The notes below the pieces were generated by a model that was not told the origin of the DNA, searched no databases, and was given only the letters and a program-made list of their open reading frames with translations. This document shows, piece by piece, positions 26,868 through 32,086 of a DNA stretch of 64,000 bases. The stretch is taken from contig JAEDIC010000001.1 of NCBI GenBank assembly GCA_016292635.1, positions 67,275 to 131,274 of the forward strand. Reading direction: 5' to 3'. The DNA is from Clostridia bacterium. GTDB lineage: Bacteria > Bacillota > Clostridia > Christensenellales > CAG-138. Every line of letters begins with the position of its first letter. Position 1 is the first letter of the stretch. Position numbers and translations under genes: made by a program.

Positions 26868-27245
26868 ATGGATTCTCTCTTTGGTTTGATATTGATAATA
26901 TTGGTCGGACGTTAATTATTTGTTATAAGTATTATTGTTGACCTATATATTTTACATCTTTAGAAAAGCATTGTCCATGTTATCAAAAAATTTTTCTTTT
27001 TTGTCGAAAAAAGTTAGGCAGCATCCCGTATGATATCCGCAAGCGCCGGTATGATGATAATGGAATATTATTATGTAAACATAGGGGGCTGCTGCCGATA
27101 ATAACAAAGTAATTAAGAAAGTTACTTTGAGTTATTGTTTGGATAGCTCAGATATTCCTCCAAAGACATTACTGCGCAAACCTTAACGGCCTTGCGCTGT
27201 TTTTCTTTTACCCATGAACGAAATGTAAACGATGCTCCATTAGCG

Positions 27246-27274
27246 TTGACGGTATGTCAAATATAGATTATATT
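27246..27274 (+). promoter_or_regulatory. Candidate promoter of blaI-blaR1-like, with an overlapping palindrome.
   Basis: TTGACG-17 nt-TATATT. The palindrome TTGAC-GGTAT-GTCAA spans the -35 element. Confidence 0.5.
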
Positions 27275-27317
27275 TATAAGCACAAGCTTGATAATGCTGC
27301 TAATGGAGGTTTTGAAT

Positions 27318-27710
27318 ATGAAGGACACACTCAATCCCAATGAATGGATCGTGATGGAAGCTCTGTGGGCAGAAAGCCCCGCCACCCTTGGCGAGACCAT
27401 CGCCCGCATAGGCGAGCGTGCCAACTGGAACTACAAGACCTATCAATCATATGTAAACGTGCTGGAAAAGAAGGGCTACGTCTCTTCCGTAAAGCGTGGC
27501 CGGGACAAGTTCTACTCTCCCGCCGTATCCCGTGAGGAGTGCATCGCCAAGGAAAGCCGCGCAATCCTCGGCAGGATGGAATCCCGCTCACTGGGCCTGA
27601 TGGTAACAAGCATGGTGCGGGAGGGAGACCTTTCCAAGGGCGACAGGCTGGAGCTTATGGAAATGCTGGAGCGGATGCTCAAGGAGGAGCAGGATGGAAA
27701 GGATAGTTGA
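27318..27710 (+). CDS. BlaI/MecI/CopY-family transcriptional repressor.
   Basis: wHTH N-terminus (EWIVMEALW..TYQSYVNVLEKKGYVSSVKRGRDKFYSP). GGAGG RBS before ATG 27318. The stop overlaps the next gene. Confidence 0.85.
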   Translation: MKDTLNPNEWIVMEALWAESPATLGETIARIGERANWNYKTYQSYVNVLEKKGYVSSVKRGRDKFYSPAVSREECIAKESRAILGRMESRSLGLMVTSMVREGDLSKGDRLELMEMLERMLKEEQDGKDS

Positions 27711-30700
27711 TATTCTCATAGAGGTCAGCCTCTATTCCGCCGTAATCACGGCCTTCATGCTGCTGTTTCGGGCGGTGTTCAAAAAGCGCATTTCCCCCAA
27801 AGTGCAGTATGCAATGTGGCTGCTGCTGGTGCTGCGGCTGATGCTGCCCGTCACCATCGAAAGCGGCTTCTATATTGAAAACATACTGCCGGAGCGCCCC
27901 GCCCCTGTGGTACAGCAGGAAAGTGTTTTTGAAATAGAAGCCCCTGTGATAGATGCTGCTCCTGTGATAATTAAGCCTGCCACCGATGTACAAATTGATA
28001 ACACATGGACTCCCGAGGAGAGCTCTCCCGCCATCCCACAGAAGATGCCCGAAAGTGCACCTTCGGCAGTTCCCGAAGAAATCGAACCTGCCCATGATAT
28101 CAACTGGCGCCTTGTGGCCTTCTGGGTATGGGCAGCGGGAGCAATGATATTCAGCATATGGATGATGATAGTAAAGCTGCGTTTTTACGAGGATATGCAG
28201 CGGCACACCACCTCCGTGTCTCCCCGAGTATACGCCATATATGACGAATGTTGTGCTGCCCTCAATGTAAAGCCCCTCACCATGTGGGCGGTGGACAGAG
28301 CCATATCCCCCGGCATAGCCTTCTTCACATACCCTGTGCTGCTGCTCCCCGCCTCCATGGACGGGGACGAGGATAAACTTCGCTATGCTTTTCTCCACGA
28401 GCTGACACACAAAAAGCGGTATGATCACTATATGACCGTGCTCTTGAACGTGTTGCGTATACTGTATTGGTTCAATCCTGCGGTGCACATCGGCTTTGCC
28501 GAGATGCGTGCCGATATGGAGACCGCCTGCGACGCTGATGTTATCGCATTCGTAGGCAAGGAACAGAAGCGGGGCTATCTCACAGCCATTTTGGAGCTGT
28601 TCTCCTACGCCACCCGCCCCCAGCTGGGCATGAGCCAGGCAAGCTCCCGCCGCATGGCAAAGCGCCGCATGAAGGGTACGTTCATGCGGGAGCGCACCAC
28701 CTTCCTTGGCAGGGCTGCGGCGCTGATGCTTGCGGCAATAATGCTGGTTGGCTGCTTCACCACGGCGTGCCAGAGCGCGCCTGTTGGGGTGGAAGAACCC
28801 CCCGAGTTTGAGGCTGTTGACACCCAAACAGAGCCCCTTATCGATATAGACGGCGACGGCATTGAAGATACCATCATCGTCGATACAGATAATACATCCG
28901 ATAAAAACTTCGACCCTGAAAACGCAAAGGCCACCTTAACGGTCGAACTTGGCAGCGGGGAAACAATAACCCGGGAAATCCCCGGCTGGTGGCAGAATGC
29001 AGAATACCACACCGCTGACTTCGACTCTGACAACAGAACCGACATTGCCCTTATGCTATGGGCAGGCGGCAGCAACTATGATGCAACCAACGTATACGTT
29101 TACCATATGGGAAACAGCAAGCTCACAGAGCTTGCAAAGAACGTCATTACAAATGACGCCATCACCTATGACCAGAGCAAATATTCTGCTTTAAACGGCG
29201 AAAACACCCATTGGGTAAGCGGCGGCACAGTAATAAAGGACGTCGAAAAAACCGCGCTGCGGCTGCGCCAAATCCTCGATTATGACCCCGGCGCAGGGAT
29301 AACCACCGCATATTACACCAATTTGGTATGGAACGGCAACGGCTGGCTCATAGAAAGCATGGAAATAGGCGAAGCCTTTGGGGAGGAGCAGGTTTATCCC
29401 GATACTCTGCAATATGCGCCGGCGATCCCCGACCCCATCGACACCCTTTCCGACATGGACCTGCTCATATATTCCTCGCTGACAAACAGCAGCAAGGCTT
29501 ACGCCCTGCCCCGCACCCTCAGTGGCAACGATCTTTCCACAAGCATATGGGATAATATTCTGCTGACTGTAAATGACAGATATTTTGACGGGAAGCCCTA
29601 CGATGCGGCAGGTGCGGCATATAACGTGGTAGCTGTAAGTCTTGACAAAGAGGGAAATATAGATGTATATCTGATTTTCACATATCGTCAATATATAATT
29701 TTGAATGATGAATTGTCTGTGGATGGCGAACTGAACTGTGCTGTTATTTGGCACTATAAGGAAAATGAAAACGGAGAAATAGAGTTTGTTCGCGTAACAT
29801 GGCCCGAAAAAGATGGCGACGGATACGCAAGCTCCATCAAAAAAAACTGGCCCGAAGATTTGCAGAAATATGCTGAATTTTCGCCTGATTCCATTGGCCG
29901 CGCAGAGCGCCTGAAAGCTATAGATGAGCAGATAGCCATTTCAATGGATAATACCACAAACGTAGGCTCTCTCCTTGGCATCATAACCTCAAGCCCCAAG
30001 GGGTCCTCTGCCCGTATTGACTACATCAACGAGCATGTGGGCGAATACGGTCAGCTTTGCGCCATGGGCCGCAGGGCAGTGGGCCATTTTATGCCCAGGT
30101 TTGAGAAGGGCTACGAAACAGGTTTGGAAGGGCAGATAATGGCCGCGGTGCTCAACGCCCTTACCGGTATAGGCTTGGTTTACGATCATGCCAACGGACA
30201 GGAGTGGTACGATGCCAACAGGAATGAAATTCTGGCATATATGAGATTGGCGGATGAAAAAGCCGCCCTCCGTGATGCCATACTCAGGCTGTACCCGCTG
30301 GCGGATGAGATAGCCGAAAAGGGATTTGCCGCAATACCGGGGCAGGGCTGGCTTGAAGAAAGCAAAGCACTGTTCCAAACCGTTGGCTTGCGCCTTGCAG
30401 GTGCAGGTGGGGCGGTGATGGACTACTTAGGTTATACCGTTGAGGCCCCCGATAAGTATTGCAGTAATGACCTTTGTCACATGTACGCCGCAGTGCTGTT
30501 CGCCGTCGTTCCGAATCTCTATGAGATAGACATTGGCAATTCCGACTATATCACATACAACACCTATCTGGACGAGGAGCATGAACATCTCCTTGCCACC
30601 GCCGTTGGCGATGTAATCTCTCGAGAGGATGCGGAAAAGCACTGGGCAGGCCTTACAAAGCCCCTTGAGGAATACGGCAGCAGCGGCAGCGGAATAAGGG

Positions 30701-31803
30701 AGCTGCTGCACACGATAGCTAAGCTGAGCGACGCGGAGTCTGTCGAAGCGGTGTCGCTGCAGCCCACGCCCGCCCTTAACGCGATAAACCCCGAATGGCA
30801 GAATGCTGAAAGGGTGTGCGCTCCCTTCAGCGAAACAGGAAAGCGGATAAACTTATCCTATTATGAAGTCTCCATAGATCTGAACAATACCAAGCGCACC
30901 CGCACAATGACGGAAAACAACGTGACGCCGGACCAGTTTGACAGGATGGACGAAGGGCGAACCCTGCTGTTGGTATACAGGGCATCGGCAGATGCAATAA
31001 ACGACAGCAGCAGGATGGAAGATTTATTCTTGCAGTTTGCCCGAATAAGCCGCTTCGAAACCGTCACGGAATTCATACAGCTTGACCACACGGCCTATTT
31101 CGGCACAGATTCCCCGGTTTATCGCATGGATAAGATGACCTCCGTTATGGATATTGCAGAGCCGGGCTGGGAGGATACCGCCTATACCACCTACTTTGTT
31201 TATCTTACTCCCCAGTGGGATTATAGGGGACAAACCCAGAGCCAAAATATCGTGCTGGGCTTCCGCTTTGTCAATGCAGTAAGGGGCGATACCGGCGGCT
31301 GGAAGCTGCTGCAAACTGAGACTGACTGCGAAAAGTGGATGGATACAGTGAAGTTTGGTGATGCATTCGCTGATGTACCCGTATTAACGCCCGCACCTGA
31401 GCCTACCCCCTCATCCGCCGCCCGTGCAAACGCCATAGTTGACAGGGCTGAACAGCTGATAGGTAAGAAGTACGAAATAGACGCATACGGCCCCGAAACC
31501 TTTGATAGTGCCGGATTTGTATACTATGTGCTGACAAGTGAAGGCGTTAAGCTGACAAAGCAAAGCTGCCAGAAATATTCCAATAACGAAAGCTGGCAGA
31601 AAATAACCGATAAGGCAGACCTGCAGCCGGGCGATATATTGTTCTTCCACAGCAATGATTTCGCCGAAATAAACCATGCCGGCATTTACATCGGCGATAG
31701 CAAGATGATAGACGCATCCTCTTCCAATGGCAAAGTAACCGAGCGCAGCTGCGATACATCCTACTGGAACAAACACTTTGCCTTTGCAAGGCGGGTATCA
31801 TAA
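27694..31803 (+). CDS. BlaR1-like M56 membrane metalloprotease/sensor fused to an extracytoplasmic region of about 1000 aa that ends in an NlpC/P60-like domain.
   Basis: N-terminal TM helices, HELTHKKRYDH (HExxH), and a further TM (AALMLAAIMLVGCF). DxDxDG-like segments (DIDGDGIEDT, DFDSDNRTD). The C-terminus reads FDSAGFVYY..PGDILFF..NHAGIYIG. Confidence 0.8.
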   Translation: MERIVDILIEVSLYSAVITAFMLLFRAVFKKRISPKVQYAMWLLLVLRLMLPVTIESGFYIENILPERPAPVVQQESVFEIEAPVIDAAPVIIKPATDVQIDNTWTPEESSPAIPQKMPESAPSAVPEEIEPAHDINWRLVAFWVWAAGAMIFSIWMMIVKLRFYEDMQRHTTSVSPRVYAIYDECCAALNVKPLTMWAVDRAISPGIAFFTYPVLLLPASMDGDEDKLRYAFLHELTHKKRYDHYMTVLLNVLRILYWFNPAVHIGFAEMRADMETACDADVIAFVGKEQKRGYLTAILELFSYATRPQLGMSQASSRRMAKRRMKGTFMRERTTFLGRAAALMLAAIMLVGCFTTACQSAPVGVEEPPEFEAVDTQTEPLIDIDGDGIEDTIIVDTDNTSDKNFDPENAKATLTVELGSGETITREIPGWWQNAEYHTADFDSDNRTDIALMLWAGGSNYDATNVYVYHMGNSKLTELAKNVITNDAITYDQSKYSALNGENTHWVSGGTVIKDVEKTALRLRQILDYDPGAGITTAYYTNLVWNGNGWLIESMEIGEAFGEEQVYPDTLQYAPAIPDPIDTLSDMDLLIYSSLTNSSKAYALPRTLSGNDLSTSIWDNILLTVNDRYFDGKPYDAAGAAYNVVAVSLDKEGNIDVYLIFTYRQYIILNDELSVDGELNCAVIWHYKENENGEIEFVRVTWPEKDGDGYASSIKKNWPEDLQKYAEFSPDSIGRAERLKAIDEQIAISMDNTTNVGSLLGIITSSPKGSSARIDYINEHVGEYGQLCAMGRRAVGHFMPRFEKGYETGLEGQIMAAVLNALTGIGLVYDHANGQEWYDANRNEILAYMRLADEKAALRDAILRLYPLADEIAEKGFAAIPGQGWLEESKALFQTVGLRLAGAGGAVMDYLGYTVEAPDKYCSNDLCHMYAAVLFAVVPNLYEIDIGNSDYITYNTYLDEEHEHLLATAVGDVISREDAEKHWAGLTKPLEEYGSSGSGIRELLHTIAKLSDAESVEAVSLQPTPALNAINPEWQNAERVCAPFSETGKRINLSYYEVSIDLNNTKRTRTMTENNVTPDQFDRMDEGRTLLLVYRASADAINDSSRMEDLFLQFARISRFETVTEFIQLDHTAYFGTDSPVYRMDKMTSVMDIAEPGWEDTAYTTYFVYLTPQWDYRGQTQSQNIVLGFRFVNAVRGDTGGWKLLQTETDCEKWMDTVKFGDAFADVPVLTPAPEPTPSSAARANAIVDRAEQLIGKKYEIDAYGPETFDSAGFVYYVLTSEGVKLTKQSCQKYSNNESWQKITDKADLQPGDILFFHSNDFAEINHAGIYIGDSKMIDASSSNGKVTERSCDTSYWNKHFAFARRVS

Positions 31804-31814
31804 CAGAAACACAC

Positions 31815-31846
31815 AATGCCCCGTCCTGAAAATAACGGGGCATTTT
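31815..31846 (+). terminator. Intrinsic terminator.
   Basis: AATGCCCCGT-N10-ACGGGGCATT followed by TT. Confidence 0.7.
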
Positions 31847-32086
31847 CATGTCATAAAGCTGAAATGGTTACAGTTTGGCAACATTTTCAGCTTTAAATTC
31901 ATGTTAAAATGTGTATAACACAACATAATATTTGTTTTGCATTTTTCTCTTGTCATAAAAAACTACGATTTTTAAACATTCGCTGTCATATTTTACCCCT
32001 CTTTTCTCTCTCATTAGTGTGGAGTAATATCCATTTCTGCAAAAATAATTGGCAGTGCTTTCTTCTGCCAAAGAAAGTGTATCGGG

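Follow-up and report, generated by a model that had tools for sequence, protein, structure and literature searches.

The stretch of DNA analysed here, referred to as the window, comprises 64,000 nucleotides (nt) of contig JAEDIC010000001.1 from the metagenome-assembled genome (MAG) of an uncultured member of the Clostridia (GCA_016292635.1). Its forward strand carries a compact two-gene operon, in which a blaI-like repressor gene is followed, with an overlap of 17 nt, by the gene for a BlaR1-type membrane protein of the Peptidase_M56 family. The extracellular part of the latter ends in an NlpC/P60 domain whose catalytic Cys is replaced by Ser. The two genes and the main elements of the membrane protein are the following (TM, transmembrane helix; ORF, open reading frame; aa, amino acids):

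27318-27710, forward strand: blaI-like repressor gene, 130 aa (PF03965, E=4e-24; aligned to MecI residues 9-121, full length)
27694-31803, forward strand: M56 (BlaR1-type) membrane protease-transducer with a modular ectodomain, 1369 aa (ORF, Pfam, motif)
27859-28101, forward strand: predicted extracellular loop between TM2 and TM3, residues 56-136, acidic, Pro-rich and variable (hydropathy and charge)
28396-28428, forward strand: zinc-binding motif HELTHKKRYDH, residues 235-245 (H235, E236, H239), invariant in the family
28711-28779, forward strand: predicted TM4, residues about 340-362, leading into the ectodomain (hydropathy and charge)
31411-31800, forward strand: NlpC/P60 domain without its Cys nucleophile, residues 1240-1369 (Pfam, alignment to Protein Data Bank (PDB) structures, model)
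31507-31509, forward strand: AGT codon of Ser1272, the nucleophile column (alignment, codon)
31675-31713, forward strand: retained triad partners His1328 (31675-31677) and Asp1340 (31711-31713) (alignment)

An initial annotation of the locus had described the overlapping blaI and M56 genes, a canonical M56 part with the HELTHKKRYDH motif, the lack of a beta-lactam sensor, and an extracytoplasmic part of about 1000 aa with DxDxDG segments, all of which hold up below. The repressor gene starts at the ATG at 27318, a start used by its relatives as well, behind a GGAGG at 27305-27309. Its product scores 85.6 bits against the Penicillinase_R family (cut-off 22.6), and this match and the MecI alignment cover the winged helix and the C-terminal dimerisation helices of the BlaI/MecI/CopY repressors. 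Among 79 related loci, a BlaI-like ORF stands upstream of most M56 genes.

The M56 domain (PF05569) occupies residues 8-314 of the second protein (E=1e-39, 136.6 bits with a cut-off of 31). The family alignment shows no variation at H235, E236, H239, E276 and D280, and the distances of E276 and D280 from the motif equal those of E242 and D246 in BlaR1 from Staphylococcus aureus, where the motif residues are H201, E202 and H205 (PMC9834060). Hydropathy and charge predict the order TM1, a basic cytoplasmic turn, TM2, an outer loop, TM3, the cytoplasmic HELTH domain, TM4 and an acidic ectodomain of about 1000 residues. These four helices, the cytoplasmic protease and the extracellular C-terminal part correspond to a predicted BlaR1 topology. 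The TM2-TM3 loop, with 16 Asp or Glu residues and 3 Lys or Arg, sits where the loop that occupies the sensor site is found in BlaR1 (PMC9834060). No penicillin-binding sensor of the SxxK acyl-enzyme type is present in the 1369-aa protein, and Pfam finds no PF00905 in it; the NCBIfam model blaR1_generic reaches 119.5 bits, below its cut-off of 400, with a match confined to the M56 part. The only other M56 gene of the genome (G000 contig C6:71783-72604; 183 bits to PF05569) has an open frame of just 322 aa, with little or no ectodomain.

The C-terminal domain matches NlpC/P60 (PF00877) over residues 1257-1367 (E=1e-19, 70.9 bits, cut-off 23). In alignments to the solved structures 7cfl (E=4e-18), 8v3w and 8i2f, FDSAGF falls on FDCSGF, which places Ser1272 in the position of the catalytic Cys; the AGT codon and the retained His are as first annotated. 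His1328 lies in NHAGIY, and Asp1340, in MIDASS, takes the third position of the triad. An AlphaFold2 (AF2) model of residues 851-1369, built from only 15 sequences and with a predicted local distance difference test (pLDDT) score of 71, matches 3h41, 6bim and 4xcm at a probability of 1.0. On the sequence evidence, the domain is a pseudo-enzyme member of the NlpC/P60 fold and not a C40 peptidase.

A homologue search in 5.8 billion proteins yielded 280 relatives; uncultured gut Clostridia repeatedly combine M56 with NlpC/P60, in some cases with PG_binding_1 added. In 113 homologous domains the nucleophile column holds Cys in 73, Ser in 32, Pro in 3 and Gly in 2, while His and Asp are practically invariant. 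In the bacterial family of the window, all 23 stand-alone NlpC/P60 genes that were sampled have the Cys, and all 23 have Asp at the third triad position. As Asp is the norm there, Asp1340 does not count as a further lesion. Cys and non-Cys fusions alike retain about 30 positions at which the stand-alone enzymes never vary, among them His1328, Asp1340, Tyr1277, Trp1301, Ser1342-Ser1343, Arg1351 and the C-terminal YW...F.ARR. The ratio of nonsynonymous to synonymous substitution rates (dN/dS), computed from the window, L001 and L002, is 0.23-0.32 for the NlpC/P60 domain and 0.12-0.18 for the M56 part, and lies within 0.12-0.32 over all modules of the protein. The domain can therefore be described as a maintained pseudo-enzyme under purifying selection. 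Gly and Pro cannot serve as nucleophiles, so in the lineages that carry them the domain must work without catalysis.

A tree of the M56 part resolves two groups, both from the genus of the window. The clade of the window, made up of long proteins, has Ser in 15 members, Gly in 1 and Cys in 1. The other, of near-identical proteins of about 900 aa, has Cys in 73, Ser in 16 and Pro in 3, and is found at one fixed locus that adjoins LytR-CpsA-Psr and NAGPA genes. The codons read at the nucleophile column are:

Sub-lineage of the window: TGT (Cys, P0021), AGT (Ser, window), GGT (Gly, P0006)
Second lineage: TCC (Ser; L002, P0013, P0017, L123), TCT (Ser; L121), CCC (Pro; L001)
900-aa clade: TGC (Cys), AGC (Ser, 4 of the 4 alleles read), CCT (Pro)
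Independent fusion L016, from another genus: TCC (Ser)

Each of the Ser codons AGT, AGC, TCC and TCT is one step from a Cys codon, and all Ser, Gly and Pro codons can be reached stepwise from TGT or TGC. No single step connects the AGY and TCN serine codons, between which a Cys codon lies. The codons show that Cys was left by separate routes. When the NlpC/P60 domain itself was placed in a tree, rooted on the stand-alone enzymes and computed without the nucleophile column, 10 changes between Cys and non-Cys were needed; well-supported branches force at least 4 of these. In the same tree the L016 fusion groups with stand-alone enzymes from other genera and therefore arose separately. The tree also contains a Cys/Ser pair, P0099 and P0100, whose domains are otherwise identical. 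Some Ser alleles of the 900-aa clade share a common linked haplotype, which indicates that recombination also spreads them; the Ser alleles of this clade may have a single origin, all four sampled being AGC.

The initial annotation had allowed for a strain-specific inactivation and, alternatively, for a hydrolase working with a Ser-His pair. Judged from the relatives, loss of the nucleophile is recurrent and maintained and not a private mutation, and a Ser-His hydrolase is disfavoured, since Gly or Pro stands at the nucleophile position in sister lineages that are equally constrained. A diversity-generating mechanism was also considered as the source of the Cys, Ser, Gly and Pro variants and set aside, as the variation concerns one codon of a conserved domain and stepwise point mutations fit it; a reverse transcriptase was not searched for.

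Alleles of the 900-aa clade also differ by whole blocks (L084-L088, L006, L009), in that PG_binding_1 is absent from the 900-aa forms and present in the 903-aa forms, and a third form has 1363 aa. Alleles with Cys, Ser and Pro in the nucleophile column occur together at this locus, and in the 903-aa alleles a 3D/RlpA-like stretch was seen by eye only.

Control of the operon can be read from the sequences that flank it:

27214-27233, forward strand: conserved upstream element ATGAACGAAATGTAAACGAT, at about -50 to -70, kept in both deep clades and in a decayed paralogue
27246-27274, forward strand: sigma-70-like promoter TTGACG-17-TATATT (10 of 12 matches; boxes kept in relatives)
27266-27295, forward strand: candidate BlaI operator, formed by the dyad GATTATAttTATAAgC (27266-27281) over the -10 box and the conserved CACAAGCTTGATAAT (comparison, genome scan)
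31815-31848, forward strand: intrinsic terminator, AATGCCCCGT-loop-ACGGGGCATT and then a T run, at the end of the operon (sequence)

The promoter lies at 27246, where it had been predicted, and its -35 and -10 boxes are kept across 10 aligned cassettes. It forms part of a block of about 105 nt that is kept in both deep clades and before which the upstream regions of the relatives are unrelated; further upstream of ATGAACGAAATGTAAACGAT the sequence is wholly different between genomes. The block consists of an ATGAAC-TAA-TGTAAAC element, the -35 box TTGAC, the stretch AGATTATAnnTATAAkCAyAAGCTTGATA across the -10 box, and the ribosome-binding site (RBS). Promoter, RBS and terminator are all kept in the cassettes. 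Within the block, a dyad of 7-2-7 pattern, GATTATAnnTATAATC, is perfect in L001, L004, L006, L008 and L009 and has one mismatch in the window cassette; it is a candidate operator, to which the BlaI-like protein may bind. At up to one mismatch the dyad occurs twice in the 1.9-Mb genome, compared with no occurrence in 5 shuffles, and a profile of the whole promoter block likewise finds two sites, the window cassette and a decayed paralogue. With operator copies at these two places only, the cassette itself is the only visible target of its repressor. In nine genomes of the genus, dyad sites are almost all at blaI-M56 promoters, and a control pattern gave one hit. Upstream of the neighbouring operon for an extracytoplasmic function (ECF) sigma factor, no sequence similar to the promoter block or the dyad was found.

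The decayed second cassette lies outside the window (G000 contig C37:75361-75730; locus L133:1443-1810) and has the same promoter block and dyad. Its blaI gene, M56 part and ectodomain are deleted, and about 100 nt after the promoter only the 3' half of an NlpC/P60 domain is left (...QPGDILFF...GHAGIY...YASSS...HFAFTRRVA*). Outside blaI-M56 cassettes, the genus scan found a single promoter-like dyad, which has 1 mismatch and precedes a DUF6034 lipoprotein gene, about 25 nt before its RBS (L132:1501-2993, G131 contig C52). It could be an extra target in that species; as a single 1-mismatch site in another species, it is too thin for the gene to be counted as a regulon member. The word ATGTAAAC of the upstream element (27223-27233) recurs 150 nt upstream, at 27073-27083 (TTATGTAAACATAG), and this second copy is not kept in relatives.

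Between TM4 and the NlpC/P60 domain, about 870 aa are made up of four shuffled modules:

28789-29439, forward strand: module A, residues 366-582, FG-GAP-like with DxDGDG motifs (weak FG-GAP hit; independent module)
29440-30243, forward strand: module B, residues 583-850, NTF2-like cone and then a helical subdomain (AF2 mean pLDDT 83.5)
30244-30747, forward strand: module C, residues 851-1018, an unassigned alpha/beta block that close relatives either have or lack
30748-31389, forward strand: module D, residues 1019-1232, mostly beta, with a weak PsbP/Mog1-like resemblance (fold search with the model)

Residues from about 361 to 1236 have no Pfam or PDB sequence match beyond the weak FG-GAP one, and the DxDxDG-type segments, DIDGDGIEDT and DFDSDNRTD, both fall within module A. 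The model of module B packs one helix on a four-stranded sheet, followed by the helical subdomain. A fold search with it returned nothing significant, only weak NTF2-like, ARC6 and VirB8-like matches (best E=0.02), and the module has more than 90 non-redundant relatives. Module D matches 4rti and 5zx9 at a probability of about 0.97 and E of about 0.05. Among relatives whose M56 part is about 80% identical, blocks are present, absent or reordered, and syntenic orthologues vary in length, from 904 aa in L006 to 1363 aa in L009. In an exhaustive search of 1.84 billion representatives, each block was found independently in many proteins; alignments were made module by module. The 72 proteins with any ectodomain module include M56 in 39, FG-GAP_3 in 14, FG-GAP in 8 and DUF4825 in 7. 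For NTF2-like domains, a role in binding ligands without catalysis, in association with M56 and NlpC/P60 proteins, has been proposed (PMC3924330).

The interpretation favoured here, with somewhat better than even confidence, is that the locus is an autoregulated cassette of the BlaI/BlaR1 family whose terminal NlpC/P60 domain serves as a non-catalytic receptor for stem peptides and reports the state of the wall. Such a switch would most likely report on the wall of the cell itself, not on antibiotics. The initial annotation had proposed an envelope-damage sensor feeding a BlaR1/BlaI-type switch; this is supported in part, namely for a pair of that type without a beta-lactam sensor, and envelope damage may be the signal. 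BlaR1 cleaves BlaI directly, and its signalling has been proposed to start when a beta-lactam displaces an extracellular loop from the active site of the sensor (PMC9834060). Since the window protein has, as in BlaR1, an intact gluzincin site and a long outer loop, together with a groove that does not cut, an activation sequence driven by stem peptide can be proposed. A D,L-endopeptidase domain of the NlpC/P60 type would have been recruited from the lineage's own wall hydrolases and, on losing its Cys, would have become a stem-peptide-binding domain, at the end of an ectodomain that may be regarded as a chain of exchangeable ligand-binding modules. The first event would be the binding of peptidoglycan stem peptide in the groove, perhaps with the other modules binding ligands of their own. 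Occupancy of the ectodomain would activate the cytoplasmic gluzincin M56 domain, which would then cleave the BlaI-like repressor, and the cassette promoter would be derepressed through the 7-2-7 dyad over its -10 box. The most likely signal would be stem peptide that has become exposed or been released, and with it the condition of the wall, either the cell's own or a neighbour's. Loss of the nucleophile would suit a receptor of this kind, because the ligand is held and not destroyed.

Several observations weigh against this interpretation. Catalysis is not lost throughout, as most alleles of the 900-aa clade still have Cys. In the aligned repressor, the scissile Asn-Phe of MecI and BlaI is replaced by Ser-Met, and the dyad over the -10 box, GATTATAnnTATAATC, is not the canonical TACA/TGTA box. 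The regulon search with the dyad and the block profile in the 1.9-Mb genome found no target beyond the cassette and its decayed paralogue. Finally, the NlpC/P60 domain lies some 870 residues beyond TM4, with the other modules in between, and one of these might be what gates the protease.

This last point leads to an alternative that is possible though unlikely, in which the NlpC/P60 pseudo-enzyme merely anchors the protein in the wall and another module, for example A or B, reads the signal, which might be a foreign polymer or some small molecule. Many M56 proteins without NlpC/P60 indeed have modules A, B and D, close relatives with an N-terminal part of about 65-97% identity end in SH3_3 (P0009, P0015) or lack a C-terminal wall domain (P0024-P0028), and the ligand-binding role proposed for NTF2-like domains (PMC3924330) would fit module B. 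An anchor, however, has no obvious need to keep the His, the Asp and the whole groove, and the repeated and selective removal of the nucleophile alone is left unexplained, even though an anchor that does not cut would gain from it too.

A more elaborate form of the receptor interpretation is distinctly unlikely to be right in all its parts. In this form, a housekeeping gamma-D-Glu-mDAP (meso-diaminopimelic acid) endopeptidase domain would have been captured by an M56 transducer at least twice, and selection would have repeatedly removed the nucleophile so that the stem peptide is held uncut, as in a substrate trap. By analogy with the beta-lactam in BlaR1, the ligand and the Pro-rich TM2-TM3 loop would be rivals for the peptide groove, from which the ligand would displace the loop. 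With no operator other than that of its own promoter, the switch would be self-amplifying, and its output would be the surface display of its own exchangeable ectodomain. The Cys and Ser alleles of the 900-aa clade would then represent a maintained polymorphism in sensitivity.

Restriction of the operator to the cassette is equally what would be expected if the protein were mainly the output, that is, a membrane-tethered wall-remodelling factor repressed by BlaI, with active Cys alleles and with Ser alleles acting as a slow Ser-His-Asp hydrolase or as a competitive protector of stem peptides. The position of the 900-aa clade beside the LytR-CpsA-Psr and NAGPA wall genes and the addition of PG_binding_1 in many alleles would agree with such a role. 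It is nonetheless very unlikely: Gly and Pro alleles are unable to hydrolyse, and an M56 protease with an intact site is fused to every copy, which points to signalling. In papain-like enzymes, moreover, a Cys-to-Ser substitution normally leaves almost no activity. Next to no credence can be given to the idea that the cassette is a decaying or non-functional accessory element, with Ser as the first step of pseudogenisation, for although the second cassette of the genome is reduced to a promoter and half an NlpC/P60 domain and the flanks of the cassette differ between genomes, the 4.1-kb frame is intact, every module shows the low dN/dS given above, promoter, RBS and terminator are conserved, and non-Cys forms persist across species.

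If the wall receptor is taken as the working interpretation, the closest well-studied relatives are BlaR1/BlaI and MecR1/MecI from S. aureus and Bacillus licheniformis. Shared features are the upstream repressor with a BlaI-family winged helix; the M56 gluzincin with four TM helices, a HExxH motif, Glu and Asp at equal spacing and an extracellular C-terminal sensor; the long TM2-TM3 outer loop; and the dyad over the core promoter, which would make the system autoregulated. Unlike those systems, the window protein lacks the penicillin-binding sensor that resembles a class D beta-lactamase, its cassette has no beta-lactamase or PBP2a target gene, and the gene order is blaI followed by blaR1 with an overlap, without a divergent target. 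The repressor differs from BlaI and MecI in the Ser-Met at its scissile site and in a candidate operator of the ATTATA-nn-TATAAT type instead of TACA/TGTA, and the ectodomain, of about 1000 aa, is modular.

BlaIR-family systems that do not sense beta-lactams are already known in bulk. A preprint on CenIR from Clostridioides difficile (bioRxiv 10.64898/2026.04.08.717257) counts 254 M56 architectures, with a transpeptidase domain in only about 6% of M56 proteins, and lists the wall-hydrolase domains M23 and Amidase_3 as C-terminal partners of M56. The combination of M56 and NlpC/P60 is absent from the common architectures that it names. Like the window cassette, CenIR is a BlaIR-family system linked to the envelope and without a transpeptidase domain. 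CenR, however, has a short and mostly unstructured tail and a regulon of 12 genes, whereas the window protein has a folded chain of several modules ending in a pseudo-hydrolase, and no regulon was found for it beyond the window cassette. CenR has no known inducer, and the authors state that ligands cannot be predicted (10.64898/2026.04.08.717257).

About 94% of BlaR-family receptors are without a penicillin-binding domain. What is new at this locus is an M56-NlpC/P60 pseudo-hydrolase, a putative sensor with a predictable ligand: as the sensor end is a recognisable enzyme fold of known substrate class, the ligand is predicted to be peptidoglycan stem peptide. What BlaRs that do not bind beta-lactams sense thus becomes directly testable for one class, for which the natural allelic series of Cys, Ser, Gly and Pro provides ready-made controls. 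The fusions are also a clean case of convergent evolution of pseudo-enzymes after domain fusion, and they illustrate how BlaR ectodomains in gut Clostridia are assembled from a shuffled toolkit of modules. A literature search found no description of M56-NlpC/P60 fusions or of the loss of their nucleophile.

The closest precedent for the sensor domain is RipD (Rv1566c) from Mycobacterium tuberculosis, a non-catalytic NlpC/P60 protein shown to bind peptidoglycan without hydrolysing it (PMC12067865). Both have the fold without the nucleophile. RipD, in contrast, is a secreted, stand-alone protein with its triad altered to Ala-Ser-Glu, and the window domain has lost the Cys alone and is fused to a signalling protease. 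With 28.8 bits against the RipD model NF033743 (cut-off 215), the domain is an analogue and not an orthologue. Anti-sigma factors of the RsgI type, from cellulolytic clostridia, and PASTA kinases likewise place an outside module that binds the wall or carbohydrates, or that derives from an enzyme, on a single-gene transmembrane signalling protein. The design principle, in which the module is exchanged between paralogues, is the same, and the difference lies in the transducer, an M56 protease in place of an anti-sigma factor or a Ser/Thr kinase, and in the folds used for binding.

Related loci show further variations. In L002:12260-18089 and L082:6756-9588 three genes come after the cassette, one sigma-like, one of 289 aa and one for a giant exported protein, of 1430 aa in L002. 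The L002 protein has module B and, in its reading frame, a match to module D, so that ectodomain modules are common to two different signalling systems. The closest relative of the cassette, with 84% identity, adjoins ParB-like and replication-initiator-like genes, recognised by eye (L001:12524-14411), and the positional orthologue in L002 is merely 65% identical, which suggests that cassettes move or recombine between sites. Finally, in Christensenellales or Bacillota MAGs (L014, L024, L046, L056), tandem arrays of 3-4 M56 genes of about 800 aa each, most with a blaI of their own, form a large local expansion of BlaIR-family switches with ectodomains of no assigned kind.

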